From a virus: DNA of 64,000 bases. How positions within the stretch are numbered: the stretch's first letter is position 1; the number at the start of each line of letters is the position of its first letter. The notes beneath the pieces are model-generated. The model did no database searches. It saw only the letters and a program-made list of their open reading frames with translations, and had not been told where the DNA came from. The stretch lies in IMG/VR virus record IMGVR_UViG_3300047310_000412, positions 19,953 through 83,952 of that record; one strand, given 5' to 3'. Of the stretch, positions 3,213-23,618 are shown one piece after another. Made by a program: the position numbers and the translations under genes.

Positions 3213-3233
3213 CTCCCTCAAAGGAGCTTTACC

Positions 3234-6971: not shown

Positions 6972-7181
6972 ATGCGTGTCCTATGCACGATCGAAGAAAC
7001 CGAATTAGAGAACGACGAAGGCCGCACGGTGGACGGTGTCGAGGCGACGTGCAGCCGGTGCGAGCACACCACCGAGAGTTATGGCACCGATACCCCATCC
7101 CGGCGGCGCTGCCTTGTGCTGCTGCGCGAGGAATGCCCCATGGGGGAGCACAATTTCTACGTCGATGAGGAAGACGACTGA
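6972..7181 (+). CDS. small acidic Cys-containing protein
   Basis: CSRC motif plus further Cys; TGATG coupling to the next gene. Confidence 0.65.
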   Translation: MRVLCTIEETELENDEGRTVDGVEATCSRCEHTTESYGTDTPSRRRCLVLLREECPMGEHNFYVDEEDD

Positions 7182-7504
7182 TGAACGAAGACTGGTTTGT
7201 CCGAGTTCAGGAGTTCGTTTGCCATGGCTGCGGCCGGTTCATGATCGCCTTTGGTGCGCTCGACATGGCGCATCCGATCTGCGGCGCGTGCATGACGCAG
7301 CCGGGCTGGACCATGTGGCCCGATCTGGTCCGCGCCTTTGATCCCGAGAACGATCGCGATCCGGCGGCGATCACCATGACCGTCAGCGAACTCGAATGCC
7401 GGGCCGAATTGGCTACCGCGCTCTTCGACTGGCTCGGCCAGAATGTCAAGATTGTCGAGGACTACCGGCCCCCCGAGGCGCTGGAGCAAAAATGGCTTCA
7501 CTGA
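7181..7504 (+). CDS. hypothetical Zn-ribbon-like protein
   Basis: CHGC...CGAC. Confidence 0.6.
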   Translation: MNEDWFVRVQEFVCHGCGRFMIAFGALDMAHPICGACMTQPGWTMWPDLVRAFDPENDRDPAAITMTVSELECRAELATALFDWLGQNVKIVEDYRPPEALEQKWLH

Positions 7505-7604
7505 GTTGGATGAGTAGGATTGCCCCGCTAAAGCCCTAAGCCGGGTATACTAATAAGCACAAGGGGCTGGCCGAAAAAAAGATGCGATCGGAGTAAAGTT
7601 TCCG

Positions 7605-7675
7605 CTTGACTCCTGGCTTGCTATCCCCTATATGTACAGTGCGACGGGAAATTGTTTCCGTTGCCAACAAGGGAG
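7605..7675 (+). promoter_or_regulatory. promoter + stem-loop + RBS cassette (copy 1)
   Basis: CTTGAC-N17-CTATAT; GCGACGGGAAA-TTG-TTTCCGTTGC; AAGGGAG. Confidence 0.8.
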
Positions 7676-7681
7676 CCAGTC

Positions 7682-9010: not shown

Positions 9011-9022
9011 ACCACCACCACC

Positions 9023-9051
9023 GGGCGACGGGATGTCCCGTCGCCCCTTTT
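9023..9051 (+). terminator. rho-independent terminator
   Basis: GGGCGACGGG-ATGT-CCCGTCGCCC-CTTTT. Confidence 0.7.
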
Positions 9052-9068
9052 GCAAGCGGAGCAGTACC

Positions 9069-9326
9069 ATGATCCACACCAATGACGGCCAGACACTGCG
9101 TGCGACCGAGCCTGAGGCGATCGTCGCGGAGCTAAACGATCTGAGCTTTTCGCCCGAGAAGACACCGGGAAAGTTCATGACCGAGAGCGCGGGGCGCATC
9201 CTCGCCTTCTCGGGGCAGAAAGTCCGCACCGACAGCGCCGAGAACTACGTCAGCGATCTGTTCGATTACGGCTTTCTCAGCACCGAGGAAGAGCCGGAAC
9301 GGCATCATCGCCGCCAGCGCCGCTAG
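9069..9326 (+). CDS. small hypothetical protein next to the amidoligase
   Basis: GGAG RBS; MIHTNDGQTLRATEPEAIV...VRTDSAENYVSDLFDYGFL. Confidence 0.65.
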   Translation: MIHTNDGQTLRATEPEAIVAELNDLSFSPEKTPGKFMTESAGRILAFSGQKVRTDSAENYVSDLFDYGFLSTEEEPERHHRRQRR

Positions 9327-9466
9327 GAAGCTCGTGGAGCGCAGGAAGGGCTTGGCTGGTGTCATACCACCGGACCGGGCCTTTCCGCGCATCCTGGGCC
9401 AGCCTAGAGGCCCGGCCGGCGGCGATCGGGGCCGAGGTATATCAATCTGCACAACGGAGAGGAGCA

Positions 9467-10477
9467 ATGCTAGAAACCAACGGCTATAACCTCAGTAGCC
9501 AACAACGCGCCGTCATCGATTACATGCGTAGCGTCTACCAGATCGATGACATCAAAGTGCGGGCGGGAGGCAAGCATCTGCACGTCGAATATGTCTACGC
9601 GGGGCGCAGGCACAAAGATACGTTCCCGCGAGGCAGAGGCCTCGATCCCAACTGGGTCGATACCAGAAAGCACGATCTGCGCAAGGAGCTTGGCTCACCA
9701 CCGGCCGATCCGCCGCAACCAACCAAGAGGAAACTCGATGATATGACACAGGAAGTCCAAGCAAGGGCCGATCTGCTAGGCAGCACCGCTGCCGGTGCGG
9801 TGATCCATCCCAAGGCAAAGGCGACGATCGCCACCGGTAAGACCGCAACCGCGCCGCCCCCGGTGCCGCACCAGCATTACGGCTGCACCATCGGGACACT
9901 CAAGAACTCGACCAACATCGCGTTTTATCTGGGCCTTGAACTATACGCGGCGATGGAACTGCAATTTGGCAAGGGACGGCGCTACGTCTTCTCGTACCAC
10001 CATCCCAATACGTGGACCGCCCGCCCGAGCCGTGACGCGGGCCAGATAATCGATCCGGCCAATCACCGGCTGCGCTGTGCCGGTGCCGAGGCGATCAAGC
10101 GTCTGGGCATGTTCGCCTCAACCAAGGCCGAGGCGATCATCCACCACAACCGCGTCGAGTTCCGGATGATGCTGCCGGTCTCTACGACGTTTGAAGCGGA
10201 ACCGGCAATTGCCATGCCGGCCACGGCAATTGCCACGCCGCCGCGTGCAGAAGTTGGTGCCCCCGTCGCCCCGATCGCCATCGTGATGAGCGAACCGAGG
10301 CCGATCAGGGCAGCGCCACCGCCGCCGCCGGCCGATCCGCGCGAGCGGCTGCGGCATGTGCTGCGGCTGATCCGGCAGATCGAGGAGGAGGGCGTCTACC
10401 GGCTGATCCCCAACGACAGCATAGGCAACAGCAACGGCTGGCGCTGGCGGGCAACCGATATCGGGCTGGAGGATTAA
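9467..10477 (+). CDS. hypothetical protein
   Basis: GAGGAG RBS before ATG 9467; Pro/Ala-rich linkers. Confidence 0.7.
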   Translation: MLETNGYNLSSQQRAVIDYMRSVYQIDDIKVRAGGKHLHVEYVYAGRRHKDTFPRGRGLDPNWVDTRKHDLRKELGSPPADPPQPTKRKLDDMTQEVQARADLLGSTAAGAVIHPKAKATIATGKTATAPPPVPHQHYGCTIGTLKNSTNIAFYLGLELYAAMELQFGKGRRYVFSYHHPNTWTARPSRDAGQIIDPANHRLRCAGAEAIKRLGMFASTKAEAIIHHNRVEFRMMLPVSTTFEAEPAIAMPATAIATPPRAEVGAPVAPIAIVMSEPRPIRAAPPPPPADPRERLRHVLRLIRQIEEEGVYRLIPNDSIGNSNGWRWRATDIGLED

Positions 10478-10709
10478 AATGAGCGTCATCATCGAGACCT
10501 GCCCAAAATGTGGCGCGCAGGGTTTTGCCTTCATCTGTTCAGAACCGGGATGTCCGGTTAACGGAGGGGCTGCTTATGGGCCAGAGCCGCCACCGGATGA
10601 ACCAGCCGAGCCGTGCATCATCCCGCCCGGTGAGCCGCTTCGTTTCCGCGAATAACCCACTGGTAAAGATTTCCCCCTACGGGGGAAATCCGAGCCGGGG
10701 AAGAACCCA

Positions 10710-10964
10710 ATGCCGATCGTCTGGGCGCAAGCCCCATCCTCCTACACCGACAGCACGTCGGGTTACGGCGACATCCTCCGCTACGTCAGCCGCTACGGCC
10801 GCCTCGACACCTACGACCTCCTTCTGTCGAACTTCGAAAACGTCAATTACACCACCGATCCCGAGCGGCGCGAAGGCTGGCTCGACCGGCACGCTGCCGC
10901 TACCAAGCGACGGCAGAAAAAGCGAGTATTTTTCCGCCGCCATCCCTTGACACATAGGCCATAA
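10710..10964 (+). CDS. hypothetical protein
   Basis: 84 aa, co-oriented. Confidence 0.5.
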   Translation: MPIVWAQAPSSYTDSTSGYGDILRYVSRYGRLDTYDLLLSNFENVNYTTDPERREGWLDRHAAATKRRQKKRVFFRRHPLTHRP

Positions 10965-10990
10965 CTCCCTATATATAAAGCGAAGGGAGA
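10946..10990 (+). promoter_or_regulatory. sigma70-type promoter + RBS
   Basis: CTTGAC-N17-CTATAT; 10967-10990 is identical to 21659-21682. Confidence 0.8.
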
Positions 10991-11106
10991 TTGGTCATGA
11001 TGATCGCTGGTGCAATGCTTCTGATCGCTGCGGCCCTCTATTTCATGTCCTGCCTGGAGGCCGGTGAGCCTCACCAATATCAAGCTATCCAAGCGGAGTA
11101 TTGATC

Positions 11107-11343
11107 ATGAGCAAGAAAGCTATCGCTCTCGAAATTCTCGCGGCGGGCGGCTATTTCCGGAAGGCTCTGGAAAGCAGCTACTACGGTGGCGAGAAGTTCG
11201 CAACGCGGCTCTACCGGCCCGGCCGGATTGCCGTCAAGGGGATTGGCATCAAGACGCTTTGGGCGCTTGAGGCCGAGGGCTTGCTGAAAAAGCGGTCCTG
11301 CCCGAAAAGCTCCACGTGGGGCGAGGAATGGGAGCTAGCGTAA
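11107..11343 (+). CDS. hypothetical protein
   Basis: GGAG RBS; TAATG coupling to the next gene. Confidence 0.6.
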   Translation: MSKKAIALEILAAGGYFRKALESSYYGGEKFATRLYRPGRIAVKGIGIKTLWALEAEGLLKKRSCPKSSTWGEEWELA

Positions 11344-11558
11344 TGGCTTGGAACCAAAGCTCTGCCTTCCCATCCGAGCGGCTGCGGAAGCGGGACGCCC
11401 GGTGGGATGAACGGGGACTGGCCTACTGGCAGCAGAAGCTGACCGAGACCGAGGCCAAGTTCATGGCTGCGCGGGCGTCTGCATCCCAGGCAAGACGGGC
11501 AATGCAACGGTTTGAAGAGGCGAAATACGCCGTCTGGACGCTTGAACAATCACGGTAA
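11343..11558 (+). CDS. hypothetical coiled-coil protein
   Basis: Coupled start at 11343. Confidence 0.55.
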   Translation: MAWNQSSAFPSERLRKRDARWDERGLAYWQQKLTETEAKFMAARASASQARRAMQRFEEAKYAVWTLEQSR

Positions 11559-11614
11559 AGGCGTTATATGTAAAGCGGACGCGGGAAATCGTTTCCGGTC
11601 CCAAAAGCGGGAGA
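11541..11614 (+). promoter_or_regulatory. promoter + stem-loop + RBS cassette (copy 2)
   Basis: CTTGAA-N17-TTATAT; GGACGCGGGAAA-TCG-TTTCCGGTCC; GGGAG. Confidence 0.8.
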
Positions 11615-11621
11615 TAAAACC

Positions 11622-12548
11622 GTGGCAGCACCAACCAAATTATATTGGGCTTATGGCTCAAATCTCAACATGCAGCAGATGATCCGGCGGTGTCCGGCGG
11701 CGGTGCCGCTTGAGGCGCTGGTCGTGCAAAATCTCATCCTGCGGTTCCGGGGCGTCGCTGATGTCGCGTATCGGACGGGAGCCTATTGCGAAGGCGCGCT
11801 CTGGGCGATCACGCAGGAATGCGAGAAGGAACTCGATATCTATGAGGGCGTCGGCAACGGCAATTACGGTCTGTATCGGAAATGTTACTTCGACTACACC
11901 GATCCCGACAGCGGGATGGCGCACAAGGTTCTCTATTACAAGATGAACCGGCACGGCATCATGCCGCCGAGCGAGGGCTATCTCGACTGCATTGTCGAGG
12001 GCTACGCCGATTTCGGCATCGATACCGGCCGGCTGCTGCGGGCGCTGGAACATTCCTGGCGGAAGAAGGATTTGAGCGGCTTTATGTCCCAGCGGTGGCA
12101 TAAGGCGGGCAAGCCCAAGATGGCGCGGCCCGAGCGGATCGCCACGATCTACGGTGAAGCCGACGAAGCCGACGAGGAGGACAACGGCAACATCGCCGCG
12201 CTCCGGACCGAACTCGCGCCCGAGGAACTGCCCGATTTGCCGCCGCCGGCCAAGCAGAAGATCAAGCGGCAACCGGTGAAGCTCAACGGCCGGGAAATCG
12301 GCGTGATCAAGCGGCGGGTCTCGGATGAGCCGCTGCCGGATGTCTGCTTGCGGATCGATCCGGACAATGGCAACCACTGTCGGGCGGTCACGCTCAGCGA
12401 GAAGGCCGAGGATTACTTCGCCGACAACATCAAGGCGGCGAAGCTCGCCAGCGAGTGGCTCTTCCGGTTCTCGACGCACGTGGTCGCCGGCCTCCTGCAA
12501 AAGAAGGGGCTGACCGTCGCCATCCTTGAAAAGCTGAAAAAGTCATGA
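11622..12548 (+). CDS. gamma-glutamylcyclotransferase (GGCT/AIG2-like) with C-terminal extension
   Basis: LYWAYGSNLN...RCP...FRGVAD...GALW...LDIYEG. Confidence 0.88.
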   Translation: MAAPTKLYWAYGSNLNMQQMIRRCPAAVPLEALVVQNLILRFRGVADVAYRTGAYCEGALWAITQECEKELDIYEGVGNGNYGLYRKCYFDYTDPDSGMAHKVLYYKMNRHGIMPPSEGYLDCIVEGYADFGIDTGRLLRALEHSWRKKDLSGFMSQRWHKAGKPKMARPERIATIYGEADEADEEDNGNIAALRTELAPEELPDLPPPAKQKIKRQPVKLNGREIGVIKRRVSDEPLPDVCLRIDPDNGNHCRAVTLSEKAEDYFADNIKAAKLASEWLFRFSTHVVAGLLQKKGLTVAILEKLKKS

Positions 12549-12862
12549 GATGCCAGACGTGCCAGGGCGACGGTAAACGCCTTAACCCGGGATTGATGGT
12601 CACCGTTTACGACGACGATCGTATCGATGTCCACAATCCCTGCTTTCTGCCGGTGATGGTCGAATGCCCCGAATGCCGGGGCAGCGGCGAAGCCAATGGC
12701 GTGGTGCCGTCACAGCGGATGAAGCTGACGATCGAGGATGTCGATGGCATGATCAGCGAAATCTGGCAGTACCAGCCGCTACTCAACGCCAAGCGCCGCG
12801 CCTTGCTCAACCGGCTCTACCGTGTGCGCCATAATCTCGAAATCATGCGGGGGGCGACATGA
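12545..12862 (+). CDS. CxxCxGxG zinc-finger protein
   Basis: CQTCQGDG and CPECRGSG. Confidence 0.65.
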   Translation: MRCQTCQGDGKRLNPGLMVTVYDDDRIDVHNPCFLPVMVECPECRGSGEANGVVPSQRMKLTIEDVDGMISEIWQYQPLLNAKRRALLNRLYRVRHNLEIMRGAT

Positions 12863-13176
12863 CCGATAGCATCGAGGACCAGCACCGCATTGCCCGCGAG
12901 CTATGGAACCGACAGCAGTCGCGCGCCGCCACCGGCAACCGCAGCGGTGAACCCGAATTGCTGGCCGAGGCGCGCGAGGCGCTGGGCTACACCACGCAAG
13001 GGCTGGCCAATTTCCTGGCTTATCGCGGGGACCACTGGCTGCGCCGCTGCGAGAAGGACGAAGCCGACATCCCGACGCTCTTGTGGCTGGTGCTCTTCTA
13101 CATGCTGCGCGAAGCCGACAAGCGTGAGTTAATGGATCGCGTTCACAACATCATTATTCAACGGAGGCCCGGTTGA
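12859..13176 (+). CDS. putative XRE-like helix-turn-helix protein
   Basis: LAEAREALGYTTQGLANFL...LRRCEKDEADIP. Confidence 0.55.
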   Translation: MTDSIEDQHRIARELWNRQQSRAATGNRSGEPELLAEAREALGYTTQGLANFLAYRGDHWLRRCEKDEADIPTLLWLVLFYMLREADKRELMDRVHNIIIQRRPG

Positions 13177-13266
13177 TTGTCGAAATAGTCGTCGCGGCGT
13201 GGATCGGGATTAACGTACTCGGTCTCGCCGCTGGTCTGATCGTCTACTTTCAGCGGAGGCGGACTG

Positions 13267-14208
13267 ATGGCAATCCTCTGGAGACAACTCTTCGACGCAA
13301 TCAACATCCGCTGGATCGATCGCGGGCATAATATCGGCAAAGACCACGTCAATATCCGCTGCCCGTGGTGCGGTCCCAGCGATCCCTCATATCATCTCGG
13401 GATCAATGAAGCGGACGGGGCCTACTACTGTCTGCGCTCGCATCCCCCGCATCACGGGCGATCACCGTACCGGCTCCTGGGCGAAGGCCTCAAGATCGAG
13501 CCGTACCGGATCGATGCGCTGCTGCGCAGCTATTCCGACGACAGTCCGCCGGTCCGCACCGTCCCCTACCACGACACCACCGAGTGGGACCGCTTCAAGA
13601 GCGTCACCGAGTATCCGATCGCGGTGAATTATCTGGTAGAGCGCGGTATCGATCCACCGCGACTGATCGCCCAGCGCTACGACTTGCGCTACGGCGGCAA
13701 TACCGGCCGGCATGCTTGGCGGATATTGCTGCCACTGCATCTGAGCGGTGCGCTGATCGGCTGGACCGGGCGGGCGATCCGCGATCAGACGCCGCGCTAT
13801 CAAGCCAATGATCCCACCGGTTCAGCCTCGCTCTACATCCCGGCCTTCCCGACCGAAGCGACGCGCGTGATCGTCATTGTCGAAGGGCCGTTCGACGCCA
13901 TCGCGATCACCGACGCCTTTTACTCGACGCACGAAATCATCGCGATTGCAATTGAAGGCCTCGCCGTCAATACGCGCCGTCGCCTTCATCTTGCTGATAT
14001 TATTGGCCTCGTAAAGAACCCGCGTCTATTGCTGACGCTCGATGCTGACCAAGATCGGAATACCGTGGAAAACTTCAAGGAACTGCTTGTATTAGGCACC
14101 AGTATTCCTCATCCTGAGAGTTTCCCGCTGCCCCCCGGCTTTAAGGATGCCGGGGAGATGTCACGTGGCGAAATCCGAGCTTGGTTTAAGCAACTGCCAA
14201 ATCAGTGA
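13267..14208 (+). CDS. DNA primase (Zn-binding domain + TOPRIM)
   Basis: CPWC..H...YYCLR; GWTGRAI; VEGPFDA; LDAD; KDAGEM. Confidence 0.85.
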   Translation: MAILWRQLFDAINIRWIDRGHNIGKDHVNIRCPWCGPSDPSYHLGINEADGAYYCLRSHPPHHGRSPYRLLGEGLKIEPYRIDALLRSYSDDSPPVRTVPYHDTTEWDRFKSVTEYPIAVNYLVERGIDPPRLIAQRYDLRYGGNTGRHAWRILLPLHLSGALIGWTGRAIRDQTPRYQANDPTGSASLYIPAFPTEATRVIVIVEGPFDAIAITDAFYSTHEIIAIAIEGLAVNTRRRLHLADIIGLVKNPRLLLTLDADQDRNTVENFKELLVLGTSIPHPESFPLPPGFKDAGEMSRGEIRAWFKQLPNQ

Positions 14209-14215
14209 GGGGACG

Positions 14216-14743
14216 ATGGCGGTAAACGGTTTTACACCGGAATGGCAAGGCGTCTTCGAAAACTGGACCAAGGCGTATTTTAAGGTCCACCACTGGAAAA
14301 TCCGCTGCGAGATGGATTTCAAGGATGCCGTGCAGGAGGGGGCGCGGATTTTCTCTTGGTGCCTGCGCAAGACCACGGCGCAGGGGGGCCGGATCGACAA
14401 TGAGAAATGGTTCATGCGCTACTACCAGCGTGCGGTGTCCACGTGGTTGATCGACAAGGCGGCAAAGGCTACCGCCCAACGTGATACTCTCCTGGCTCTG
14501 GTCCAACAGCAGCCAGTTAGCACTACCGATCAAAACGGGCCGCTTTTCACCGCACTCAAACACGATACGTCCAGCGAATTACAGCACGTGCTGCGCGTCA
14601 TCACCGGAACACCGAGCGAGTTCTTCCTTGGCATGTTGTTAAGCTCCGGTCCGGACAATGTCTGGTCGCGGCGGATATGTCGGCTGTGCGGCATTCCGGT
14701 CAACGAGAATATCATCGGCGAACTGCGCAAGCTACTAGAGTAG
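14216..14743 (+). CDS. possible sigma-factor-like protein (region 2-like)
   Basis: DFKDAVQEGARIF...WFMRYYQRAVSTWLID resembles sigma region 2 (DLxQEG...FxxY...xxxIID). Confidence 0.45.
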   Translation: MAVNGFTPEWQGVFENWTKAYFKVHHWKIRCEMDFKDAVQEGARIFSWCLRKTTAQGGRIDNEKWFMRYYQRAVSTWLIDKAAKATAQRDTLLALVQQQPVSTTDQNGPLFTALKHDTSSELQHVLRVITGTPSEFFLGMLLSSGPDNVWSRRICRLCGIPVNENIIGELRKLLE

Positions 14744-14749
14744 ATCGAC

Positions 14750-14778
14750 CTTGCCAGTCGATACTCCAATAATTATAT
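14750..14778 (+). promoter_or_regulatory. sigma70-type promoter
   Basis: CTTGCC-N17-TTATAT. Confidence 0.6.
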
Positions 14779-14803
14779 TAATCCCCCAATGGAAGGAGCA
14801 ATC

Positions 14804-15376
14804 ATGCCGGAAACGACAGATACTACCGCCGAGACCGAGGCTGAACACACGATCAACAGCGAAATGCTCGCCGCGATCAAACAGTTCAAGCCGAGCTTCC
14901 GGGCGCAAGGCGTAAACGAGGAAGACGAAAAGTACATCACGCGCTTCCTGCAAGCCGTCGCCGACGTGCCGGATGAACTCTATAATGCGCTCTCGCCCGA
15001 GGCCCTGGATTATTTCGCCGAGGCCGCGAAAATCTCCAATGCCCAAGGCACACCGTCACCGCCAGAAGGCTTTGTCTCGAATTACAAGCCAAAGCCCGCC
15101 AAGGAGGCCAAGAAGAAGCTGATCACGCGCGAAAGGCCGCAGAAGCCGGTCAAGACCGTGGGACCGACAATGGGGACGCTGATCCGCCGGGCAATCATCG
15201 ACAACCGCAATATCTCCGTTCAAGACCTGGAGACCATGCTAGCGGCGAACGGCTTTACCGACATCAAGCGCTCGACCGTCTTCTCGTTCCAGCGCGGCTC
15301 GCTGGACACGCTGAAGGTAGCCGAGGCGATGGGCCGCTTTACGTGGCCAGCGGGGCAAGCTGCTGCTGCGGATTAA
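14804..15376 (+). CDS. hypothetical protein
   Basis: GAAGGAG RBS; has its own promoter and terminator. Confidence 0.75.
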   Translation: MPETTDTTAETEAEHTINSEMLAAIKQFKPSFRAQGVNEEDEKYITRFLQAVADVPDELYNALSPEALDYFAEAAKISNAQGTPSPPEGFVSNYKPKPAKEAKKKLITRERPQKPVKTVGPTMGTLIRRAIIDNRNISVQDLETMLAANGFTDIKRSTVFSFQRGSLDTLKVAEAMGRFTWPAGQAAAAD

Positions 15377-15405
15377 GGAGACTAAACCTAACCGGTTTAG
15401 TTACC

Positions 15406-15434
15406 GAGGCCCCCGTAAAAAGCGGGGGCCTTTT
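15406..15434 (+). terminator. rho-independent terminator
   Basis: AGGCCCCCG-TAAAAAG-CGGGGGCCT-TTT. Confidence 0.7.
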
Positions 15435-15457
15435 CGTTGGGGTATAAGAGAGGCAGC

Positions 15458-16417
15458 ATGGCACAGGATCGGGAAAAAAGCATGGATGACGCAGCCCCGC
15501 AAATGGTCACGCAAGAGCGCGCCGGGCCGATCGACAAATCGGTGCTGCTCTTCTCGGGAGGTATGGACAGCCTCTGCTACGCCCGTCTGCTCAAGCCGGA
15601 TTTGCTGCTCTACATCCCGACCGGCGCGCGCTACGAGGATACCGAAAGCTGGTGGGTCAGCCAGTTGCTGTTCCAGCACATGCTGCCAGACGCGTGTGAG
15701 TTCCTAACACTGGGCGGGGTGCTCGATCTGGGGCGCTACGAGCGCGACGATCTGATCGTCCCCAACCGCAACGCCCATCTCTTGATGCTGGCCTCGCATT
15801 ACGGCGATCGGCTCTATCTCTCATCGGTCGAAGGCGACCGCTCAACCGACAAGGACGAGCAGTTCTACGCGCTGATGACCGTGCTGCTCGACCACATGTG
15901 GCAAAAGCAGCACTGGACCGATCGCCGCTGCTTCAAGATCGAAGCCCCGTTCAAGGAGTTCACCAAGCGGCAACTCGTCGCCATGTACTTAGAGAACGGC
16001 GGCGATCCGGATGGCTTCCGCGTCAGCTATTCCTGCTATCGCGGCGAGCGCAAGCACTGCGGCACGTGCAAGCCGTGCTTCCGCAAGCGCGTCGCGCTCG
16101 AACTCAACAACATCATGCTCAAGGATTACTGGGAGAAGGATTTCTGGCACTGCCGCTGGTACACCGATCTGCTGCCGATGATCCAGACTGGCCAGTATCG
16201 CGGGACCGAGGACGCAGATGTCATGGCATTTGCCAACCGTATCCGATGTCCGAGCCATCCGACAGCGAGCTTGTTGCCCGGCAATATTCGATCCTCCGCG
16301 AACTCGATGAGCACAAGCAAAGCAAGGCCGCACTCGAAACCGAAATGCAGCAGATCGCAACCGAGCTACAACGCCGGCTCGATGCCGAGCGCGAAGCCTA
16401 CTGGGTCGAAATCATGA
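15458..16417 (+). CDS. queC: QueC-like 7-cyano-7-deazaguanine synthase family protein; the natural end is probably near 16246
   Basis: PP-loop SGGMDS, VPNRN, SYSCY, HCGTCKPC. Confidence 0.8.
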   Translation: MAQDREKSMDDAAPQMVTQERAGPIDKSVLLFSGGMDSLCYARLLKPDLLLYIPTGARYEDTESWWVSQLLFQHMLPDACEFLTLGGVLDLGRYERDDLIVPNRNAHLLMLASHYGDRLYLSSVEGDRSTDKDEQFYALMTVLLDHMWQKQHWTDRRCFKIEAPFKEFTKRQLVAMYLENGGDPDGFRVSYSCYRGERKHCGTCKPCFRKRVALELNNIMLKDYWEKDFWHCRWYTDLLPMIQTGQYRGTEDADVMAFANRIRCPSHPTASLLPGNIRSSANSMSTSKARPHSKPKCSRSQPSYNAGSMPSAKPTGSKS

Positions 16418-17001
16418 CCAGCAACGAAGCCGCCGATCGCTTTGTCCGAAAATATAATGGCGGAAAATTCGTCCCCTGGACCCGGCAAGCAAATTACAAA
16501 AAAGGAGTATATGGCCATATCATCTATTGGCCGCCTGACACCCCCAATTGGGTTTGTCACGACGAGCGTCAGCCAATGATAATGCGCGCCTGCTGTGGTG
16601 CGATTATCAACCAAACCGGCTCACGGCATTTTCACGATGTCTTGGTTCGCTATCTACGGCGTCGCCGCTATAACGAAACTGATCCCCACGAGATAAGACA
16701 ATTTATTAAAGTTTTGCTGGACAGGCTCGTCAATAACTGGGCGGTCAAGCGAGGACATGCGTGGTTCTCGCAAGCACGGTCGCATCATTTGCACCGGATT
16801 GCACTCGAACTCGCTGATCCGGATTATGCATTTTACCGAGGAACACGCCGCTGGCGTGACGACACCAAAACGGTCGTTGTCGAAAAGATCGTTGAAAAAC
16901 AGGTCTTTGTTGTACAGCGGCGTAAGCTCAGCCAGCGTAGCGATCGGATCATCGCCGACGCCGTCCGAGGACTTGGGTTAATCAAGGAGCAGAAGAAATG
17001 A
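16246..17001 (+). CDS. hypothetical protein
   Basis: Protein-like composition begins at MSEPSDSEL; ATGA coupling to the next gene. Confidence 0.65.
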   Translation: MSEPSDSELVARQYSILRELDEHKQSKAALETEMQQIATELQRRLDAEREAYWVEIMTSNEAADRFVRKYNGGKFVPWTRQANYKKGVYGHIIYWPPDTPNWVCHDERQPMIMRACCGAIINQTGSRHFHDVLVRYLRRRRYNETDPHEIRQFIKVLLDRLVNNWAVKRGHAWFSQARSHHLHRIALELADPDYAFYRGTRRWRDDTKTVVVEKIVEKQVFVVQRRKLSQRSDRIIADAVRGLGLIKEQKK

Positions 17002-17495
17002 GCAGGATCGAACTGACGCTGGCCCTTACCGAACTAATCCAGAGCTTGCCGCGTCGTACTCGGCGCGTGCGTGAAGAACGCTGGCGCAATCTCGTTACCA
17101 GCAATCCGCTATTGGCTGAAGCCGCCGCCGACTTTTTCTTCTCGCTCTATTATCGGAATGTTCTCGCGACACTGTCAGCAGGCCCGGAAACCGAGCGGCA
17201 GCGCCGCTCACGGGCCGCTGTTTTGGTGCAGATCGAAGCCGATTGGGCGGCAGAAGTCGCTGCTACTCAAGCGGAAATCGTCAATAATCTGCTGGAATTT
17301 TTAACGCCGCTGGGCAAGCCGTTAGGCGATTGCACGGGAGCGGAATGCCTCCACATGGAAGGATTTTTTGGCCGTGTCGGCAGATCGATCCCTGCCAATG
17401 GCCGTGTGCGCGAATACCTCAACAACAACGAATTGCGCGACATGATACGACAGCAAATGCCGAGCAACCAAAACGAGCAGAGAACCAACGTTTGA
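16998..17495 (+). CDS. hypothetical protein
   Basis: AAGGAG RBS; coupled start. Confidence 0.65.
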   Translation: MSRIELTLALTELIQSLPRRTRRVREERWRNLVTSNPLLAEAAADFFFSLYYRNVLATLSAGPETERQRRSRAAVLVQIEADWAAEVAATQAEIVNNLLEFLTPLGKPLGDCTGAECLHMEGFFGRVGRSIPANGRVREYLNNNELRDMIRQQMPSNQNEQRTNV

Positions 17496-17505
17496 GGAGG
17501 AAGTC

Positions 17506-17865
17506 ATGTTTTGGAAGAAGTTTCGCGAGGAACAGGAACGCCGCCGCCGCGAAGAGCAGGATCGCCGTCGTCGCGAGGAGCAATACCGCCAGGATGCAGC
17601 CGCTCGCCGCAGTCAGGAGGATACGGCCTTGATGACCAATGCCGTGACGATTGCCACGCTGGCAGCGCAACAGGATACACCGACGCAGTCCGCCAAGCCG
17701 ACGCCGGATACGCATACGCCAACCGGCACCACGCACCACCACACCGCGACGCACCATGCCGATACCACCACGCATCACGCCGATAGCGGCGTCACGCACC
17801 ACCACGTCGATACGACGCCTTCAATGCCCGACAGCGGGAGCGGCGGCAGTTTCACCGGTTGCTAA
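17506..17865 (+). CDS. low-complexity Arg/Glu- and His/Thr-rich protein
   Basis: GAGGAGG RBS. Confidence 0.6.
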   Translation: MFWKKFREEQERRRREEQDRRRREEQYRQDAAARRSQEDTALMTNAVTIATLAAQQDTPTQSAKPTPDTHTPTGTTHHHTATHHADTTTHHADSGVTHHHVDTTPSMPDSGSGGSFTGC

Positions 17866-18046
17866 AGAGGCTACGCGATTGAACCCGAACCAGCGCGCCG
17901 CCTTTATCCTGACCGTGCTGGGCTTCCTACCGGTCGCCGTCCACGGTCCTGGCGTGGTCCATCACAGCATGGCGCATTACATACTGCTGGCGAGCTTCCT
18001 CATCGGCATGCTCGCCTTTGGCTGGATGATCAGCATCTGGAAATAA

Positions 18047-18302
18047 ACCCGGACCGCCGGCCTGCTACCGCGCCCGGTCTGTGAGCTTAATTAGGCAGGC
18101 ACTCCCTCACAGCATTGGCGCATGCCGGTGATCCGCGTCGCTCGATGTCCCTGGTCCCATCGCAGGGCACCTCACAAACGCAAACGGCCGACAAACTAGC
18201 GGTCTCAGCGCTGAAGCCGCAGCACTCATCGAGAGCAAGGGTGACCGGTTCTGGCCATGGGTCGCAGCCGCTCCGGTAGGCGATCCCTCGATTGCGCCAA
18301 TC
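18047..18302 (-). ncRNA. candidate structured non-coding RNA
   Basis: Own promoter; 9-bp 5' closing stem; internal stems; two 3' hairpins with complementary loops. Confidence 0.5.
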
Positions 18303-18307
18303 ACTAG

Positions 18308-18336
18308 ACTATACCCTGCCAAAATAAATACTCCAA
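18308..18336 (-). promoter_or_regulatory. sigma70-type promoter for the candidate ncRNA
   Basis: TTGGAG-N17-TATAGT on the minus strand, back-to-back with the 18351 promoter. Confidence 0.55.
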
Positions 18337-18350
18337 AAGCCGATTACGGC

Positions 18351-18379
18351 CTTGCAATATGAGGTAGTATTCCCCATAT
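18351..18379 (+). promoter_or_regulatory. sigma70-type promoter
   Basis: CTTGCA-N17-CCATAT. Confidence 0.7.
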
Positions 18380-18487
18380 GTATAGTGCGGCGGATGGCCG
18401 TGTGGGAGAAAGGGAAAAGAGGAAAGCCGGAAGATCGCGGAGGCCGCCTGGAGGCTGGCCTCCGATCCTGTAACCGAGGAGAGGATA

Positions 18488-18796
18488 ATGGCAAAATATC
18501 GCATTTACTACATGCGCCCCGAATGGTTCCGCAACGGCATCTGCAACCAGAAGCCAGTGATCGCCGAACTCGAGAAGACGCACGTCTTTCTGTGCGAGAC
18601 CGAGGCCCGCGATCTGGACCACGTCTTTTACAACATGCAAGGCGAGATTTGGTCGCCCAACGGCGAAGCCCGCGAACTGATCCAGAGCAAGGGCTTGCGG
18701 CACACCAGCATGTCGGTAGGCGACGTAATCGAACTCGACGGAAGCTACTGGCTGGTATCGAGTTCCGGATTTGAGGACTTGACATATGCAGCTTAA
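18488..18796 (+). CDS. YodL-like domain protein
   Basis: LDHVFYNM...HTSMSVGDVIELDG...VSSSGF. Confidence 0.65.
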   Translation: MAKYRIYYMRPEWFRNGICNQKPVIAELEKTHVFLCETEARDLDHVFYNMQGEIWSPNGEARELIQSKGLRHTSMSVGDVIELDGSYWLVSSSGFEDLTYAA

Positions 18797-18806
18797 AGCC
18801 CTATAT
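18778..18806 (+). promoter_or_regulatory. sigma70-type promoter overlapping the 3' end of the upstream gene
   Basis: CTTGAC-N17-CTATAT. Confidence 0.8.
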
Positions 18807-18829
18807 GTAATGAAGAAAGGAGACCGACC

Positions 18830-19297
18830 ATGACGTTGTTCATCGATCTAGATGGCGTCTTGGCCGATATGGACTCGGCCTACGAGGCCCTCACTGGAAT
18901 ACGGCTCGACAAGCTGATCGACAATGTGGACTGGGCAGCGGTCGCCGCTGAACCCGACTTCTACGCCAATCTGTCGCCCATGCCGGATATGGAAGCCCTT
19001 TGGGCCTACGCTTCGACGTGGCCCGACGTGGTGGTACTGACCGGTGTGCCAAAGGCCGTGCCTGCCTCGACAGCGGATAAGCGGGCGTGGGTCACCAAGC
19101 ATCTCGGGGCGCACGTGCGGATGATCGCCTGTGCCTCCAAGGACAAGAGCCGGTACGCCAAGGCTGGCGACATCTTGGTGGATGATTGGACGCGGTATCG
19201 GTCGCACTGGCTGAAGATTGGCGGCATCTGGATCACACACACTAGCGCTGCTTCCTCGATCGCCGCACTAAAGGAGCTAGCATGGGCAACGCTCTAA
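18830..19297 (+). CDS. HAD-family 5'(3')-deoxyribonucleotidase (NT5C-like)
   Basis: LFIDLDGVLAD, VLTG, KRAWV, ILVDD. Confidence 0.85.
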   Translation: MTLFIDLDGVLADMDSAYEALTGIRLDKLIDNVDWAAVAAEPDFYANLSPMPDMEALWAYASTWPDVVVLTGVPKAVPASTADKRAWVTKHLGAHVRMIACASKDKSRYAKAGDILVDDWTRYRSHWLKIGGIWITHTSAASSIAALKELAWATL

Positions 19298-19497
19298 GCT
19301 ACCACCCGAACAGCCAGAAGCTGATCCAGGTTAAACGGAACGGCGTGCATCTGTGCTGGATCGATCGGTCCTATGTGCGGCCGGCCACGGGCTTGAACCG
19401 GCCACGGTCCGTTAAATGGGAAACGCTGGTCAACGGCGTCACCATGCGGGCGCGGAGCCTCAGCGCCTTAAAGGCGAAACTGGGAGATTTGCCATGA
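19282..19497 (+). CDS. hypothetical protein
   Basis: AAGGAG RBS. Confidence 0.55.
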   Translation: MGNALSYHPNSQKLIQVKRNGVHLCWIDRSYVRPATGLNRPRSVKWETLVNGVTMRARSLSALKAKLGDLP

Positions 19498-19646
19498 AAA
19501 AGCTGCTGTGCCAGTGGTTCCTGCTGTGCCGCAACGTCGCTACCACGACGCTGATGCATCCGGTGCTGGGCCGCGTGAAAGTCTGCGAGCGCTGCGCCAA
19601 GAAGACGGCGCGGCTCGAAGCAGCGGCAGAACGGCGGGCGGCATGA
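19494..19646 (+). CDS. small Cys-containing protein
   Basis: ATGA-coupled; CQWFLLC...CERC. Confidence 0.5.
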   Translation: MKKLLCQWFLLCRNVATTTLMHPVLGRVKVCERCAKKTARLEAAAERRAA

Positions 19647-19843
19647 CCGATCGCGCCGACTACCGCGAAAGCTACATCGTCATCTGCCGCGACGACGGCA
19701 CCGAGGATTGTCCCGGTGCCTACGTCCTGGCAACGCGGCGCGTCTTTGCCGATCTGGCCACGGCCGAACACTACGCCAGCGGCGTCGCCGCTGGCCGCAC
19801 GCCGATCGTGGTCGCCGGTCGCTGGCACCAACTGAGGTTCTGA
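19643..19843 (+). CDS. hypothetical protein
   Basis: ATGA-coupled. Confidence 0.55.
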   Translation: MTDRADYRESYIVICRDDGTEDCPGAYVLATRRVFADLATAEHYASGVAAGRTPIVVAGRWHQLRF

Positions 19844-19844
19844 C

Positions 19845-19882
19845 TGTAAGATTTCCTGACGAGACTGTCAGATAATCTTACA
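19845..19882. promoter_or_regulatory. twin enhancer (bEBP/PrsR-like) binding sites
   Basis: TGTAAGATTTCCTGACG (19845-61) and TGTCAGATAATCTTACA (19866-82): TGT-N11-AC(A/G); the two are inverted copies of each other. Confidence 0.65.
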
Positions 19883-19932
19883 GTTTACAGGGAGATATCA
19901 GCGGGAAGCGTTGAAATCCCTAGATTATTGGC

Positions 19933-19949
19933 TTGGCCCGCTGCATGCA
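19933..19949 (+). promoter_or_regulatory. sigma-54 (RpoN) -24/-12 promoter
   Basis: TTGGCCCGCTGCATGCA with GG-N10-GC spacing, about 50 nt upstream of the first PEP-CTERM gene. Confidence 0.65.
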
Positions 19950-20000
19950 TACCTCTCTCGATGTCTGGACATCCAGGCATCTCATGCATGAGAGGAAACC

Positions 20001-20750
20001 ATGATTAAGTATCTAACGCTTGCCGGGGCCTTGCTAGCCTCGACCGCGTTGACCCTACCGGCCAACGCGACATTGCAAATCTCTGCCGACATCAACGGCA
20101 CGAGCTTTACCTGCGCCGACCAAGCCGCTTGCGACACCAACAACGCTGTCGGGCAGTTGCAGATCGCCAATCAGACGATTGCCGGTGTGCAGTTCCTCGG
20201 CTCGGCACAGACGCAGGTGATCGGCCCGTCGAACTCGCTGAACACGTCGTCGTTTCAGGTGATCAACAACAACACGGGCACGGTCTCGATCCAGCTTGCC
20301 GTGAGCGGGACCAGTTTCCTTGGTCCGGTGACGGCGTTCACCGCGAGCGGTGCCGGGACGTTCCAATCCGGTATCGGCTCCAGCGTCACCGAGACATTCT
20401 TTGGTGATGCAACGAACACGCAAGGCGCGGACACCCCGACCGATCTGCCGGGTTCCTTGCTCGCGACCTTGACGCACGCCGCCGTGGTCGATCCTGACTC
20501 GTTCTCGCAGAACTTCTCAGGTGTGTTCGACAGCACCGGTCCCTACTCCCTGTCGGAGGGGACGACCGGTACGCTGATCGCTGGTGCGTCGCTGGTTGGG
20601 CGCACGCAGTCCATCGTTACCACGCAAGCCGTGCCGGAACCGGCGTCGTTGGCAATCTTCGGCTCCGCGCTGCTCGGTATGGGCGTCGTGGGCCGTCTGC
20701 GCCGTCGCAAGAATGGCAAGACCGATCTAAGCGGCACGTCCGCCGCTTAG
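20001..20750 (+). CDS. PEP-CTERM sorting-domain secreted protein
   Basis: Signal peptide (...LPANA); Ser/Thr/Gly-rich body; C-terminal VPEPASLAIFGSALLGMGVVGRLRRRK. Confidence 0.92.
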   Translation: MIKYLTLAGALLASTALTLPANATLQISADINGTSFTCADQAACDTNNAVGQLQIANQTIAGVQFLGSAQTQVIGPSNSLNTSSFQVINNNTGTVSIQLAVSGTSFLGPVTAFTASGAGTFQSGIGSSVTETFFGDATNTQGADTPTDLPGSLLATLTHAAVVDPDSFSQNFSGVFDSTGPYSLSEGTTGTLIAGASLVGRTQSIVTTQAVPEPASLAIFGSALLGMGVVGRLRRRKNGKTDLSGTSAA

Positions 20751-20809
20751 TACAACCGGGGGCGGGGGCAATCTCCCGTCCCCTTTTATGGGGACAAGGA
20801 AAAGGGAAC

Positions 20810-21568
20810 ATGAAGAAATTTACGTTACTGATGGCAGGCGCTGCGGCGGGGGCCTTACTAGCCTTTGCCCCTGCGACTGCCGACGCGGCGGTACTGCTTT
20901 CACTCAGTGACGCGCTCGGCAACTGCGGCGGGGCCTGTCAAGGCCTCACCTATACGCTGGAAGAGGAAATTCCAAATCCTCTCCAGCCGCTGACCGCTGA
21001 ATTTGCCCTGCTGATCACCGGGGAAAATTCAGGCACCGACACGATCGGCGGACGCACTGGCATCAACGCCATTTCGTTCAACACGGTGTCGAATAACAAC
21101 CCGGCTTCGGGCGCGTTCGTGGGGACGCTCATCAACGGCGTCACCACGCTCGGCACGGCTGGGTTCCTCTTCAAGCCGGGCGGGCTGTCGTCATCGGGCT
21201 GCGATGGGAACGGTGGTTTCTACTGCTTCGACAACACCGCCATCCCGCCGATCCCGGCGTCGCCGCTGATCACCGGGCCGGTTGTCCTCGCGTTTGAGGC
21301 AACGCTGGACGCCGGTAGTTCATGGACCGACTACACCACGGCACTGAAGATCGATTGGGTTGGTCCAAATCAGAACAACTACAGTCTGGTGTCGAAGGAT
21401 ATCCCGGTCAACAGCAACGACTGCCCGGACTGCGTGATCAATCCGACCGGTGTCCCAGTTCCGGAACCCGGCTCGCTCGCTATCTTTGGCGCGGCGCTGC
21501 TCGGCTTCGGTGCGGTCGGCTGGTATCGCCGCCGCAAGGACAGCGGCATCGACGGCGCTGCTGCATAA
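20810..21568 (+). CDS. PEP-CTERM sorting-domain secreted protein
   Basis: Signal peptide (...TADA); C-terminal VPEPGSLAIFGAALLGFGAVGWYRRRK. Confidence 0.92.
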   Translation: MKKFTLLMAGAAAGALLAFAPATADAAVLLSLSDALGNCGGACQGLTYTLEEEIPNPLQPLTAEFALLITGENSGTDTIGGRTGINAISFNTVSNNNPASGAFVGTLINGVTTLGTAGFLFKPGGLSSSGCDGNGGFYCFDNTAIPPIPASPLITGPVVLAFEATLDAGSSWTDYTTALKIDWVGPNQNNYSLVSKDIPVNSNDCPDCVINPTGVPVPEPGSLAIFGAALLGFGAVGWYRRRKDSGIDGAAA

Positions 21569-21587
21569 AGCACCTTCTGCGAACTCC

Positions 21588-21617
21588 AAAGAGCGGCCTC
21601 GGGCCGCTCTTTTTTTT
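21588..21617 (+). terminator. rho-independent terminator closing the PEP-CTERM module
   Basis: AAAGAGCGGCC-TCG-GGCCGCTCTTT plus T run. Confidence 0.85.
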
Positions 21618-21637
21618 AACTCTTTTGCCGACACCGA

Positions 21638-21682
21638 CTTGACATATAGCGGTATCTCCCCTATATATAAAGCGAAGGGAGA
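21638..21682 (+). promoter_or_regulatory. sigma70-type promoter + RBS
   Basis: CTTGAC-N17-CTATAT. Confidence 0.8.
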
Positions 21683-21685
21683 CCG

Positions 21686-21886
21686 GTGATGTTTTTAGAA
21701 CCCTCTGAGATGAATGTCGAAATGGCCATGGAATGGGTAATGGCTGGTCTCGGCAAGCTCTACAGCAACGAGCGGGCCGCGAAATTCGCGGAGAAGTTCG
21801 AAGCCTGGGCCTACAAGGCCGAGGCCGAGAAGGCAGGCTGGAAATTCCCCGCCGCCCCCAGCGCCGCCCCTTGGGCGCTGGCCTGA
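21686..21886 (+). CDS. hypothetical protein
   Basis: Directly after the promoter/RBS. Confidence 0.6.
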   Translation: MMFLEPSEMNVEMAMEWVMAGLGKLYSNERAAKFAEKFEAWAYKAEAEKAGWKFPAAPSAAPWALA

Positions 21887-21904
21887 CCGAGAGGAGAGAC
21901 TGCC

Positions 21905-22096
21905 ATGAAGCTCAATTACAAAAAGATCACCGCCGCCGCCGTCAAGGCCATGAAGGGCCTAGCAAGCCCTGGCTGGTGCGTGAAATGCGGCAAGGAACAC
22001 AAGGGCATCGAGCCTGACGCGCGGAAATATCCCTGCGCGAAATGCGGTTCCGCCAGCGTCTACGGCGCTGAGGAACTGGTTTTGATGCTGTCCTAG
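21905..22096 (+). CDS. small Zn-ribbon protein
   Basis: GWCVKCG...EPDARKYPCAKCG...VYGAEE. Confidence 0.7.
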   Translation: MKLNYKKITAAAVKAMKGLASPGWCVKCGKEHKGIEPDARKYPCAKCGSASVYGAEELVLMLS

Positions 22097-22272
22097 CCGA
22101 TCACAGAGGAGATTGCCATGACCAAATTTATCGAGTTGGTAACAGCGTACTCCCGGCTAACCGCTGCTGAGTTGGAGTCCTATCTCGAATTACGGCATCT
22201 ATTGGAAACCGAGCAGGTTCGGGCAATACTCTTTATTAAGTCGCGGAACATCAGCGTGGAGAGGAAGACACC

Positions 22273-22662
22273 ATGACCAAATATCTCGAAGCTACCGATC
22301 CCGGTGCGTTCACCGATCGGGCACGGAAGAGCGCCCAGCCGGGCTACGGCTACACCGCACGGTGTCCGCTGTGCCGGGGCTACGGTGGCTGGAACCTAAA
22401 GCTAAACGCCTATCGGCTCCCGGCCGGTCAGCGGAACACCAAGGCCAATCGGGCGGCGTACTGCCATTTCTCCTGCTGCTGCTCGCAGTGCAACGGCTGG
22501 GGCTGGGTCCATCCATCAAACGTCGCGTGCGTCCATGAATGGCAGGAAGTCTCCGCTGCCAAGGCGGCAGAACTGGGCGTCCCGCATTTCGGCAACTGCT
22601 ACCACGTCTACGTCTGCACCAAGGGCTGCGGGCGGACGCGGGCGACCGACAGTAGCGGTTAG
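22273..22662 (+). CDS. Cys-rich hypothetical protein
   Basis: CPLCRGYG, CSQCNGWG, CTKGC. Confidence 0.65.
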   Translation: MTKYLEATDPGAFTDRARKSAQPGYGYTARCPLCRGYGGWNLKLNAYRLPAGQRNTKANRAAYCHFSCCCSQCNGWGWVHPSNVACVHEWQEVSAAKAAELGVPHFGNCYHVYVCTKGCGRTRATDSSG

Positions 22663-22715
22663 GAGCGCGAAAAGAAGCGCGCGAAACGCGCGGCCCGCGC
22701 AAACCGCGCGAACCC

Positions 22716-22743
22716 AAAGAGAGGCTGAGGCCTCTCTTTTTTT
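22716..22743 (+). terminator. rho-independent terminator
   Basis: AAAGAGAGGC-TGAG-GCCTCTCTTT plus T run. Confidence 0.8.
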
Positions 22744-22764
22744 GCCCGAAGAGTTATTTCCCCT

Positions 22765-22837
22765 GTTGACATCTGGCGCGATATCCCCCATATGTAACGT
22801 GGAACACGGGAAATCGTTTCCGGTTCCAACAAGGGAG
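22765..22837 (+). promoter_or_regulatory. promoter + stem-loop + RBS cassette (copy 3)
   Basis: GTTGAC-N17-CCATAT; GGAACACGGGAAA-TCG-TTTCCGGTTCC; AAGGGAG. Confidence 0.8.
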
Positions 22838-22844
22838 AACCCCG

Positions 22845-23618
22845 ATGTTCGCATCTGCAAAAACGGTGACGCTTGTCACCAAATCCCCAGCGAAAGGCAA
22901 GCCGTCCAAGCCCGTCGATCTGATCGAGGGCTGGGAAGAGCTATGCGCGCTCGACGCGGTATCCAAGGCGCTCGCCGGTCTGGTCACGATCAAGAAACAG
23001 GCGATCGAGGAGGGGCCGGTCACCGAGTTATTGGTGTCACGGGGCCTTGCGACCGGGCGGAAGCCCGAGAGCTTGTCGCCGGTCGAGGGCGAGGGCAAAG
23101 GCTCGGCCTACATCGCTAAGCGGTCCACGCGGTCCGCGCTGAGCGAGGAGGAGCTAGAGCTTCTCACCGAGACTGTCGGTGAGGAGGCGCTCGGCAGCTA
23201 CACCGAGACTGTCGAGGCTCTGCCAGCGCTGCTGGCGGTCAATCCGGCCTATGCCAACGACGAGGCGTTGCTCCGGAAGATCGACAAGGCGCTCAGCGGC
23301 ATCAAGGGCATCCCCGAGGATTTCATCGTCCAGCAGGAGGCGGTCTCCAAGACGGTGGTCAGCGACGAGGCGACCAACGCCATGTTCAAGCTGACGCCCG
23401 AAAAGCTCGACGCGGTGTTCTCGATCCTCGCCGGGATCAGCATGCGGCCGGTCTATGGTGCCGGTCTCGAAAAGGCTTGGGAGGCCATCCGGCCGCTCAT
23501 CCCCGAGGCCGAGGCGATGCCCGAGAAGCCCAAGAGCCGGAAGGTAGCACCGCCCACGCCAGTCGCGCGGTCGAGCGCCGAATTGAAGGAGCAGTTCCGG
23601 AAATCGGCCACGAAATAG
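22845..23618 (+). CDS. hypothetical protein
   Basis: 257 aa, directly after the cassette. Confidence 0.75.
   Translation: MFASAKTVTLVTKSPAKGKPSKPVDLIEGWEELCALDAVSKALAGLVTIKKQAIEEGPVTELLVSRGLATGRKPESLSPVEGEGKGSAYIAKRSTRSALSEEELELLTETVGEEALGSYTETVEALPALLAVNPAYANDEALLRKIDKALSGIKGIPEDFIVQQEAVSKTVVSDEATNAMFKLTPEKLDAVFSILAGISMRPVYGAGLEKAWEAIRPLIPEAEAMPEKPKSRKVAPPTPVARSSAELKEQFRKSATK

Follow-up and report, generated by a model that had tools for sequence, protein, structure and literature searches.

A two-gene PEP-CTERM cassette with a predicted PrsR/sigma-54-type control region in a virulent-type soil myovirus

In a 64,000-nucleotide (nt) stretch of viral DNA, hereafter the window (bases 19953-83952 of the IMG/VR record IMGVR_UViG_3300047310_000412), two tandem genes, p1 and p2, encode predicted secreted proteins that both end in a PEP-CTERM tail, and the DNA in front of them carries the box and the sigma-54 promoter motif described for bacterial PEP-CTERM genes. 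It is probable that they form a self-contained cassette of a virulent-type soil myovirus, in which the phage provides the cis-elements and two substrates and the host provides all trans-acting parts. Read from the sequences, what is new is that the PEP-CTERM box regulon, itself known from bacteria, has a member residing on phages. In the literature searched, neither phage-borne PEP-CTERM genes nor phage genes under a PrsR box were described; the nearest item mentions in passing a PEP-CTERM domain of a virus-like element in Dehalococcoides. An initial annotation of the same DNA had proposed a surface-protein module wired to the host sigma-54/enhancer circuit, and at the level of comparative genomics its interpretation is supported. 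Positions below are those of the window unless another record is named.

The p1 gene (20001-20750, plus strand) encodes a predicted secreted beta-sandwich protein of 249 amino acids (aa), and p2 (20810-21568, plus strand) encodes a predicted secreted protein of 252 aa with conserved cysteine motifs and an immunoglobulin-like (Ig-like) beta-sandwich model. Reading of the sequences located the tails where the initial annotation had placed them: in both proteins VPEP is followed by a hydrophobic helix and then by RRRK. The PEP-CTERM domain occupies aa 210-237 of p1 (VPEPASLAIFGSALLGMGVVGRLRRRK; 20628-20711) and aa 216-243 of p2 (VPEPGSLAIFGAALLGFGAVGWYRRRK; 21455-21538), ending 12 and 9 residues, respectively, before the stop codon. 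The NCBIfam model TIGR02595, which that annotation had suggested running on both proteins, gave 18.2 bits with p1 and 18.7 bits with p2, above the cut-off of 16 in each case. With Pfam PF07589, p1 scored 23.9 against a cut-off of 20.7 and p2 was marginally below it with 20.3. The VPEP motif was nearly invariant among homologues (P212, E213 and P214 in alignment A2; E219 and P220 in alignment A4). None of the named PEP-CTERM subfamilies (EDSAP-1 NF041538, flocculation PepA NF033554, XDP1 NF041927 and others) matched p1 or p2 at its cut-off; the best scores of p1 were 32.2 against 100 for EDSAP-1 and 31.6 against 80 for PepA, and those of p2 were 24.8 and 22.6.

The N-termini, likewise read from the sequence, resemble signal peptides with a basic start, a hydrophobic core and an AxA-type site (p1, about aa 1-23, ...PANA|TLQ; p2, ...ATADA|AV), and these features are kept across homologues. 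The AlphaFold2 model of p1 has a predicted local distance difference test (pLDDT) value of 82 and shows an all-beta core or sandwich with a C-terminal helix; the p2 model (pLDDT 74) shows an Ig-like sandwich. The tail helix was modelled at residues 215-238 of p1 and 220-244 of p2. Fold searches returned generic carbohydrate-binding modules for p1 and Ig-like domains of Gram-positive pilins and adhesins for p2, at template modelling scores of 0.2-0.47, and we take these matches as leads and not as assignments. The models would fit surface or matrix proteins, and the folds do not fix a function. Among the ESM Atlas clusters nearest to p1, the label indicates a viral majority in two and a Pseudomonadota majority in one. 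Structures like p1 also cluster in Verrucomicrobiota and Planctomycetota, and in the Verrucomicrobiota cluster VPDSG-CTERM and PEP-CTERM tails each occur in about one quarter of the members.

Upstream of p1 we found two 17-nt sites and a sigma-54 promoter-like motif at exactly the positions first reported for them. An inverted copy of motif 1 at 19845-19861 (minus strand; TGTAAGATTTCCTGACG, reverse complement CGTCAGGAAATCTTACA) precedes the PEP-CTERM box, motif 1 itself, at 19866-19882 (plus strand; TGTCAGATAATCTTACA), the predicted site of a PrsR-type activator. The two 17-mers are inverted relative to each other (13 of 17 bases agree when one is reverse-complemented) and form a palindrome with 11-bp arms centred at about -96 from the predicted start. 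An equivalent inverted pair with a compensatory G:C to A:T change is present in L003, a distant relative of the carrier phage. A second half-box, GTTTACA (19883-19889, plus strand), came from sequence and composite scans and adjoins the box. Motif 2 at 19933-19949 (plus strand; TTGGCCCGCTGCATGCA) has the GG-N10-GC form of a -24/-12 promoter (GG at 19935-19936, GC at 19947-19948) and agrees with the consensus at 9 of 11 positions; it predicts a transcription start near 19959-19961. The box is 50 nt from motif 2 and motif 2 is 51 nt from the ATG, and the box follows the form YGTCG-N6-YTTTACA with one mismatch in the hexamer. Sites resembling that of integration host factor occur in the spacers, agreeing at 9 of 9 positions in loci L007 and L035 and at 7 of 9 in the window, as raw pattern matches. 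Immediately downstream of the preceding stop codon (19843), the 42-nt palindrome would, as RNA, fold into a hairpin of -24 kcal/mol (z-score -5.2).

Haft et al. (2006; PMC1569441) described such boxes and promoters upstream of 99 of 167 proteobacterial PEP-CTERM genes. Their motif 1 is 17 nt long with TTTACA at its 3' end, is sometimes repeated and is the predicted PrsR site. After a spacer with a mean of 62.8 nt (standard deviation (SD) 10.6, range 32-92) it is followed by a 17-nt sigma-54 motif 2, which lies at a mean distance of about 71 nt (SD 38.5) from the start codon. Across genomes the occurrence of the DNA site exactly matches that of PrsR, PrsK and PrsT (PMC1569441). The pepA gene of Aquincola tertiaricarbonis is RpoN-dependent, with a mapped start and a predicted enhancer upstream (PMC9850573). 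In motif form, spacer and distance to the ATG, the sequence upstream of p1 matches this published cis-architecture, in keeping with the RpoN/PrsR wiring that the initial annotation had described as frequent among proteobacterial PEP-CTERM genes.

We scanned 26 non-redundant viral loci for a composite defined as [CT]TTACA, a 35-66 nt spacer and a sigma-54-like site, all within 150 nt upstream of a p1 homologue. The composite was present in 11 of the 26 loci, and about 670 kb of other sequence, both strands included, gave 7 further matches, which corresponds to an enrichment of about 270-fold. The box form YGTCG-N6-YTTTACA is common to 10 phage loci other than the window (for example TGTCGGCAAATCTTACA, CGTCGATCCACTTTACA and AGTCGAATAACTTTACA), and most of these other loci (L007, L035-L040) have a single box without a palindrome. 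The spacers form three length classes (39-41, 49-51 and 61 nt) that differ by roughly one helical turn, as expected if the activator has to stay on the same side of the DNA with respect to the promoter. Stronger sigma-54 sites than that of the window stand at the same place in L003 and its fellow relative L008, and in L032, L039 and L041. Eleven lineages have kept the box, the spacing classes and the -24/-12 site although the non-coding DNA around them cannot be aligned between phage lineages, which is a sign of selection on these elements. GG-N10-GC was unrecognisable in the groups L018/L019/L027 and L021/L022, and across L018-L027 the two cassette genes overlap at their stop and start codons. 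Locus L020 has an extra composite on its minus strand near locus position 12470 (CGAGAAAAGCATTTACA, a 41-nt spacer, then CGGCAATTGATTTGCT), away from the p1 homologue and at the edge of the retrieved DNA.

The initial annotation had called for a comparison of the 17-bp sites with those in front of host PEP-CTERM genes. We used a betaproteobacterial metagenome-assembled genome in which a true PrsR scored 717 bits (cut-off 502.6); it stands in as a PrsR-positive control and is not taken to be the host. Four PEP-CTERM genes of this genome are preceded by boxes of the same YGTCG-N6-YTTTACA form (TGTCGGGTTCGTTTACA, CGTCGCCTCATTTTACA, TGTCGATGGACCTTACA and CGTCGGATATCTTTACA), which stand 62-84 nt upstream of promoters of the TGGCAC/CGGCAC-N5-TTGCT type.

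The metagenome protein collection contained 226 homologues of p1 and 79 of p2, and genomic contexts were read for those p1 homologues that are in IMG/VR. There, 33 contigs carry a p1 homologue. GenBank phage records gave no DNA or protein match to the region, p1 or p2, and neither protein falls into a PHROGs family. The cassette gene is also carried by unrelated phages, where it adjoins a DNA polymerase, a tail protein, a primase-helicase or a giant virion-type protein. The last of these neighbours, a 1758-aa protein next to the p1 homologue of L040 (7440-12713, minus strand), matches the giant virion-type families phrog_14770 and phrog_616, and thus the cassette occurs in very different phage types. 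A full-length p1 homologue was not found in 800 sampled proteobacterial genomes, 400 from the order of the control genome and 400 from its phylum. The one bacterial match was a truncated fragment corresponding to residues 59-167 (L011, 8001-8324; genome G001, contig 2). It lies in the chromosome of the betaproteobacterial control genome, in ordinary surroundings between genes for a hybrid histidine kinase and a protein of the endonuclease/phosphatase family, and none of the neighbours scanned was a phage gene.

The ratio of nonsynonymous to synonymous substitution rates (dN/dS) was 0.06 for the core of p1 compared with that of L003 (94 nucleotide changes, 11 amino-acid changes) and 0.10 for p2 compared with that of L008. 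Judged by these ratios, p1 and p2 are under purifying selection and are functional genes. The core proteins that the carrier shares with its distant relatives L003 (92,966-bp record) and L008 are 32-68% identical, whereas identity reaches 90% for p1 against L003 and 97% for p2 against L008. DNA similarity to L003 is confined to 20059-20728 and that to L008 to 20593-21537, with identity breakpoints at about 20059, 20593, 20728 and 21537. The p1 gene is itself a mosaic, in which two types of signal peptide and two types of core occur in all four combinations with a nearly constant PEP-CTERM tail (window 20001-20750; L003 5992-6741; L008 5992-6774; protein P0079). For the p1 signal peptide and for p2 the window has other alleles than L003, and its sigma-54 site is weaker. 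The breakpoints and the combinations of types indicate that the cassette has been reshuffled in modules between phages.

The carrier record is a linear, uncultured contig of 83,952 bp with an estimated completeness of 77%. Its tail genes (tail sheath, baseplate wedge, several tail fibres and tape-measure-like proteins) are those of a myovirus. The part of the record upstream of the window (L057; record bases 1-19990, minus strand) encodes T4-like replication functions, namely a DnaB-like helicase, an SbcCD-like nuclease, a UvsX-like recombinase, a clamp, a clamp loader, a DNA polymerase and a ribonucleotide reductase. A homologue of queuine tRNA-ribosyltransferase adjoins the ribonucleotide reductase gene and hints at a modified DNA base. 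Neither the carrier record nor four relatives, of which two are 95-98% complete, yielded a tyrosine integrase, the one kind of integrase searched for. With its T4-like replication genes and no integrase the carrier looks virulent, which argues against classical lysogenic conversion. No exosortase was found in the window, as first reported, and this absence extends to the whole 83,952-bp record and to five related phage records. Sigma-54 and a sigma-54 activator domain were likewise absent from the carrier record and four relatives. With phages that lack exosortase, sigma-54 and its activator, host factors would be needed. A search for tRNA genes, made for host identification, found none.

The cassette stretch was present in 23 soil and rhizosphere DNA runs. 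Contigs from independent runs bridged the left junction (19742-20381) and the right junction (20528-22301 and 21430-23000). Between 20381 and 20528, within p1, contigs broke in three independent soil or rhizosphere assemblies, and in two of these a second contig with at least 12 substitutions had the greater depth, which suggests the coexistence of p1 alleles within a single sample.

The strong terminator which the initial annotation had placed after p2 is an intrinsic terminator with an 11-pair stem (hairpin 21588-21612, T run to 21620, plus strand). Absent from that annotation was a further hairpin between p1 and p2 (20758-20783, with TTTT to 20787, plus strand), which has 11 pairs, 9 of them G-C, resembles a terminator or attenuator, and lies in a block 96% identical to L008. 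The early promoter of the phage, CTTGAC-N17-CTATAT, is present in 7 exact copies, where chance would give 0.01; all lie on the plus strand of the early region (1596, 7605, 10946, 18778, 21638, 24145 and 24832). The cassette has no copy of its own, as had been noticed at the outset; those at 18778 and 21638 flank it and none stands directly in front.

From these elements we infer the following route. A host response regulator of the PrsR type, the enhancer-binding protein of the PrsK/PrsR pair, would bind the inverted 17-bp boxes at 19845-19882 and activate host sigma-54 RNA polymerase at the -24/-12 promoter at 19933-19949. The transcript would encode p1, cross the partial terminator and then encode p2. 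The signal peptides would export both proteins and the C-terminal helix would hold them in the inner membrane, where a host exosortase would process them and pass them to the cell surface or the exopolysaccharide matrix. Infected cells would likely be re-dressed in this way only during the matrix-producing state of the host. Candidate benefits are the blocking of further adsorption, the retention of infected cells or progeny in an aggregate, and the binding of matrix polysaccharide. Besides its role as a box, the palindrome may double, as a hairpin, as an insulator against read-through from the 18778 promoter.

Several observations weigh against this reading. The presence of PrsR and of an exosortase in the host is assumed, and no experimentally mapped PrsR binding site was found in the literature searched; binding of PrsR to the box is a published prediction. 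The window's box ends in CTTACA instead of TTTACA, and its -12 element is ATGC instead of TTGC. The sigma-54 core TGGC-N8-TGCW occurs in the window 5 times against 5.8 expected; only the 19934 site among the five is intergenic and correctly oriented, and since the core is at chance level we give it no weight on its own. What is significant is its combination with the TTTACA box and the conservation of that combination upstream of homologues. Yet 15 of the 26 homologous loci are without the composite, some of them with sigma-70-like promoters, so the wiring is frequent and not universal. The cassette also lies downstream of the 18778 early promoter in the same direction, and with only a hairpin lacking a U run in between, read-through is possible. 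A soil metatranscriptome library contained a shallow contig (19821-19995) that spans the complete control region together with DNA upstream of the predicted sigma-54 start and could represent DNA carry-over or read-through. In the same library a deeper contig covered the small gene at 21698-22026, which is no proof of transcription. We rejected the contigs of this library as evidence of expression, since they cover a small share of the region and cannot show a start or transcription.

The points on read-through would be explained if the cassette were transcribed mainly as the tail of the 18778 early unit, with the box and the sigma-54 site as relics of capture from a host. The cassette is co-oriented with the genes at 18830-19843 with no canonical terminator between them, the 19821-19995 contig reaches upstream of the predicted sigma-54 start, and in L023-L025 the same two genes have a sigma-70-like promoter (GGGGGTTGACA...TAATAT, that is TTGACA...TAATAT) about 60-90 nt in front of the p1 homologue in place of the sigma-54 composite. 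We regard this as unlikely, however, given that the box, the spacing classes and the -24/-12 site have persisted in 11 lineages despite flanks that cannot be aligned, and that the stable hairpin of the 42-nt palindrome could insulate the cassette. The same hairpin, which starts directly after the stop codon at 19843, might instead be the only role of the palindrome (19845-19885), ending the upstream operon as RNA, with the promoter sigma-54-dependent and its activator a protein other than PrsR; the literature searched also contained no biochemical demonstration of PrsR binding to the box. Most of the other loci, however, have a single box without a palindrome, which makes the 17-nt box the conserved unit, as opposed to the stem. 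The same box form precedes PEP-CTERM genes in the PrsR-positive bacterium, and the distribution of the site follows PrsR, PrsK and PrsT exactly across genomes (PMC1569441). We therefore hold this account to be improbable.

The proteins themselves could be read as inner-membrane-anchored periplasmic proteins that undergo no exosortase processing and act, for instance, in superinfection exclusion, the tail being merely an anchor. A transmembrane helix with a basic cluster would anchor in any host, and the presence of an exosortase in the host of this phage is assumed. The phage also appears virulent, and virulent phages use membrane-anchored exclusion proteins, of which T4 Imm and Sp are examples. 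What is nearly invariant in both families, though, is VPEP itself and not just the helix, and the coupling to a regulatory box of the exosortase system argues for membership in that system; a pure anchor thus seems to us a poor prospect. Finally, PEP-CTERM genes and the box are otherwise bacterial features, and an uncultured, linear, incomplete contig could have had host DNA joined to it by misassembly or a wrong prophage boundary. The initial annotation had itself named a misassembled host fragment as a danger. The cassette, however, sits mid-contig between phage early genes and phage promoters, both of its junctions were bridged in independent runs, and its G+C content (60.5%) is near that of the window (59.4%). 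The IMG/VR contigs with homologues have phage-type neighbours in the loci tested, and the sampled proteobacterial genomes yielded no bacterial homologue except the one fragment. We give an artefact hardly any credence.

If host PrsR and exosortase do act on the cassette as proposed above, phages exploit the exosortase pathway and read a matrix regulator of the host through an enhancer-dependent, very tightly gated promoter. Bacteria of soil, sediment and sludge commonly sort proteins by the PEP-CTERM/exosortase route, which is poorly understood and whose substrates matter for flocs and biofilms. The box, the promoter and a small substrate gene would make compact natural reporters of PrsR activity and exosortase function. 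More tentatively, and with somewhat less confidence than doubt, we suggest that the p1 and p2 families live mainly in phages and less in bacteria, and that virulent-type soil phages sense the matrix state through PrsK/PrsR and sigma-54 and load rapidly recombining beta-sandwich proteins of their own into the exosortase pathway, remodelling the matrix or the surface of infected cells. Lytic phages would then have a route to manipulate the architecture of biofilms or flocs. The cassette gives access to the ways in which phages spread through, or remodel, aggregates of bacteria in soils and in wastewater systems.

The cassette resembles the cellular PEP-CTERM genes of the PrsK/PrsR/RpoN system in several respects. 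Its products combine a predicted signal peptide with a C-terminal PEP-CTERM domain, and it is a small unit with its own predicted promoter and terminator. As in the cellular regulon, a 17-nt box ending in (T/C)TTACA is followed by a spacer within 32-92 nt, GG-N10-GC and about 50 nt to the start. In contrast to the cellular genes, its carrier has none of the proteins of the system, and it is a tandem pair, whereas a cellular PEP-CTERM gene usually stands singly. Phage spacers are mostly about 50 nt, compared with the published mean of 62.8 nt and the 62-84 nt of the bacterial control, and the mature domains of p1 and p2 fall below the cut-offs of every named PEP-CTERM subfamily.

The lambda genes bor and lom are phage morons, envelope genes of lysogenic conversion. 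Like them, the cassette is an autonomous unit between phage genes, with a promoter-like composite and a terminator and with predicted envelope proteins as products, and it has been exchanged between phages and inherited independently of core genes. The initial annotation had called it a complete moron. The autonomous unit and its independent inheritance agree with that description; a temperate carrier with expression from a prophage does not, because tyrosine integrase is absent and the replication genes are T4-like. Unlike bor and lom, the cassette would consequently be expressed in productive or carrier-state infection. It differs from them also in its predicted enhancer-dependent sigma-54 promoter, which matches the published site of one host two-component system, and in that the placement of its products would need a sorting enzyme of the host.

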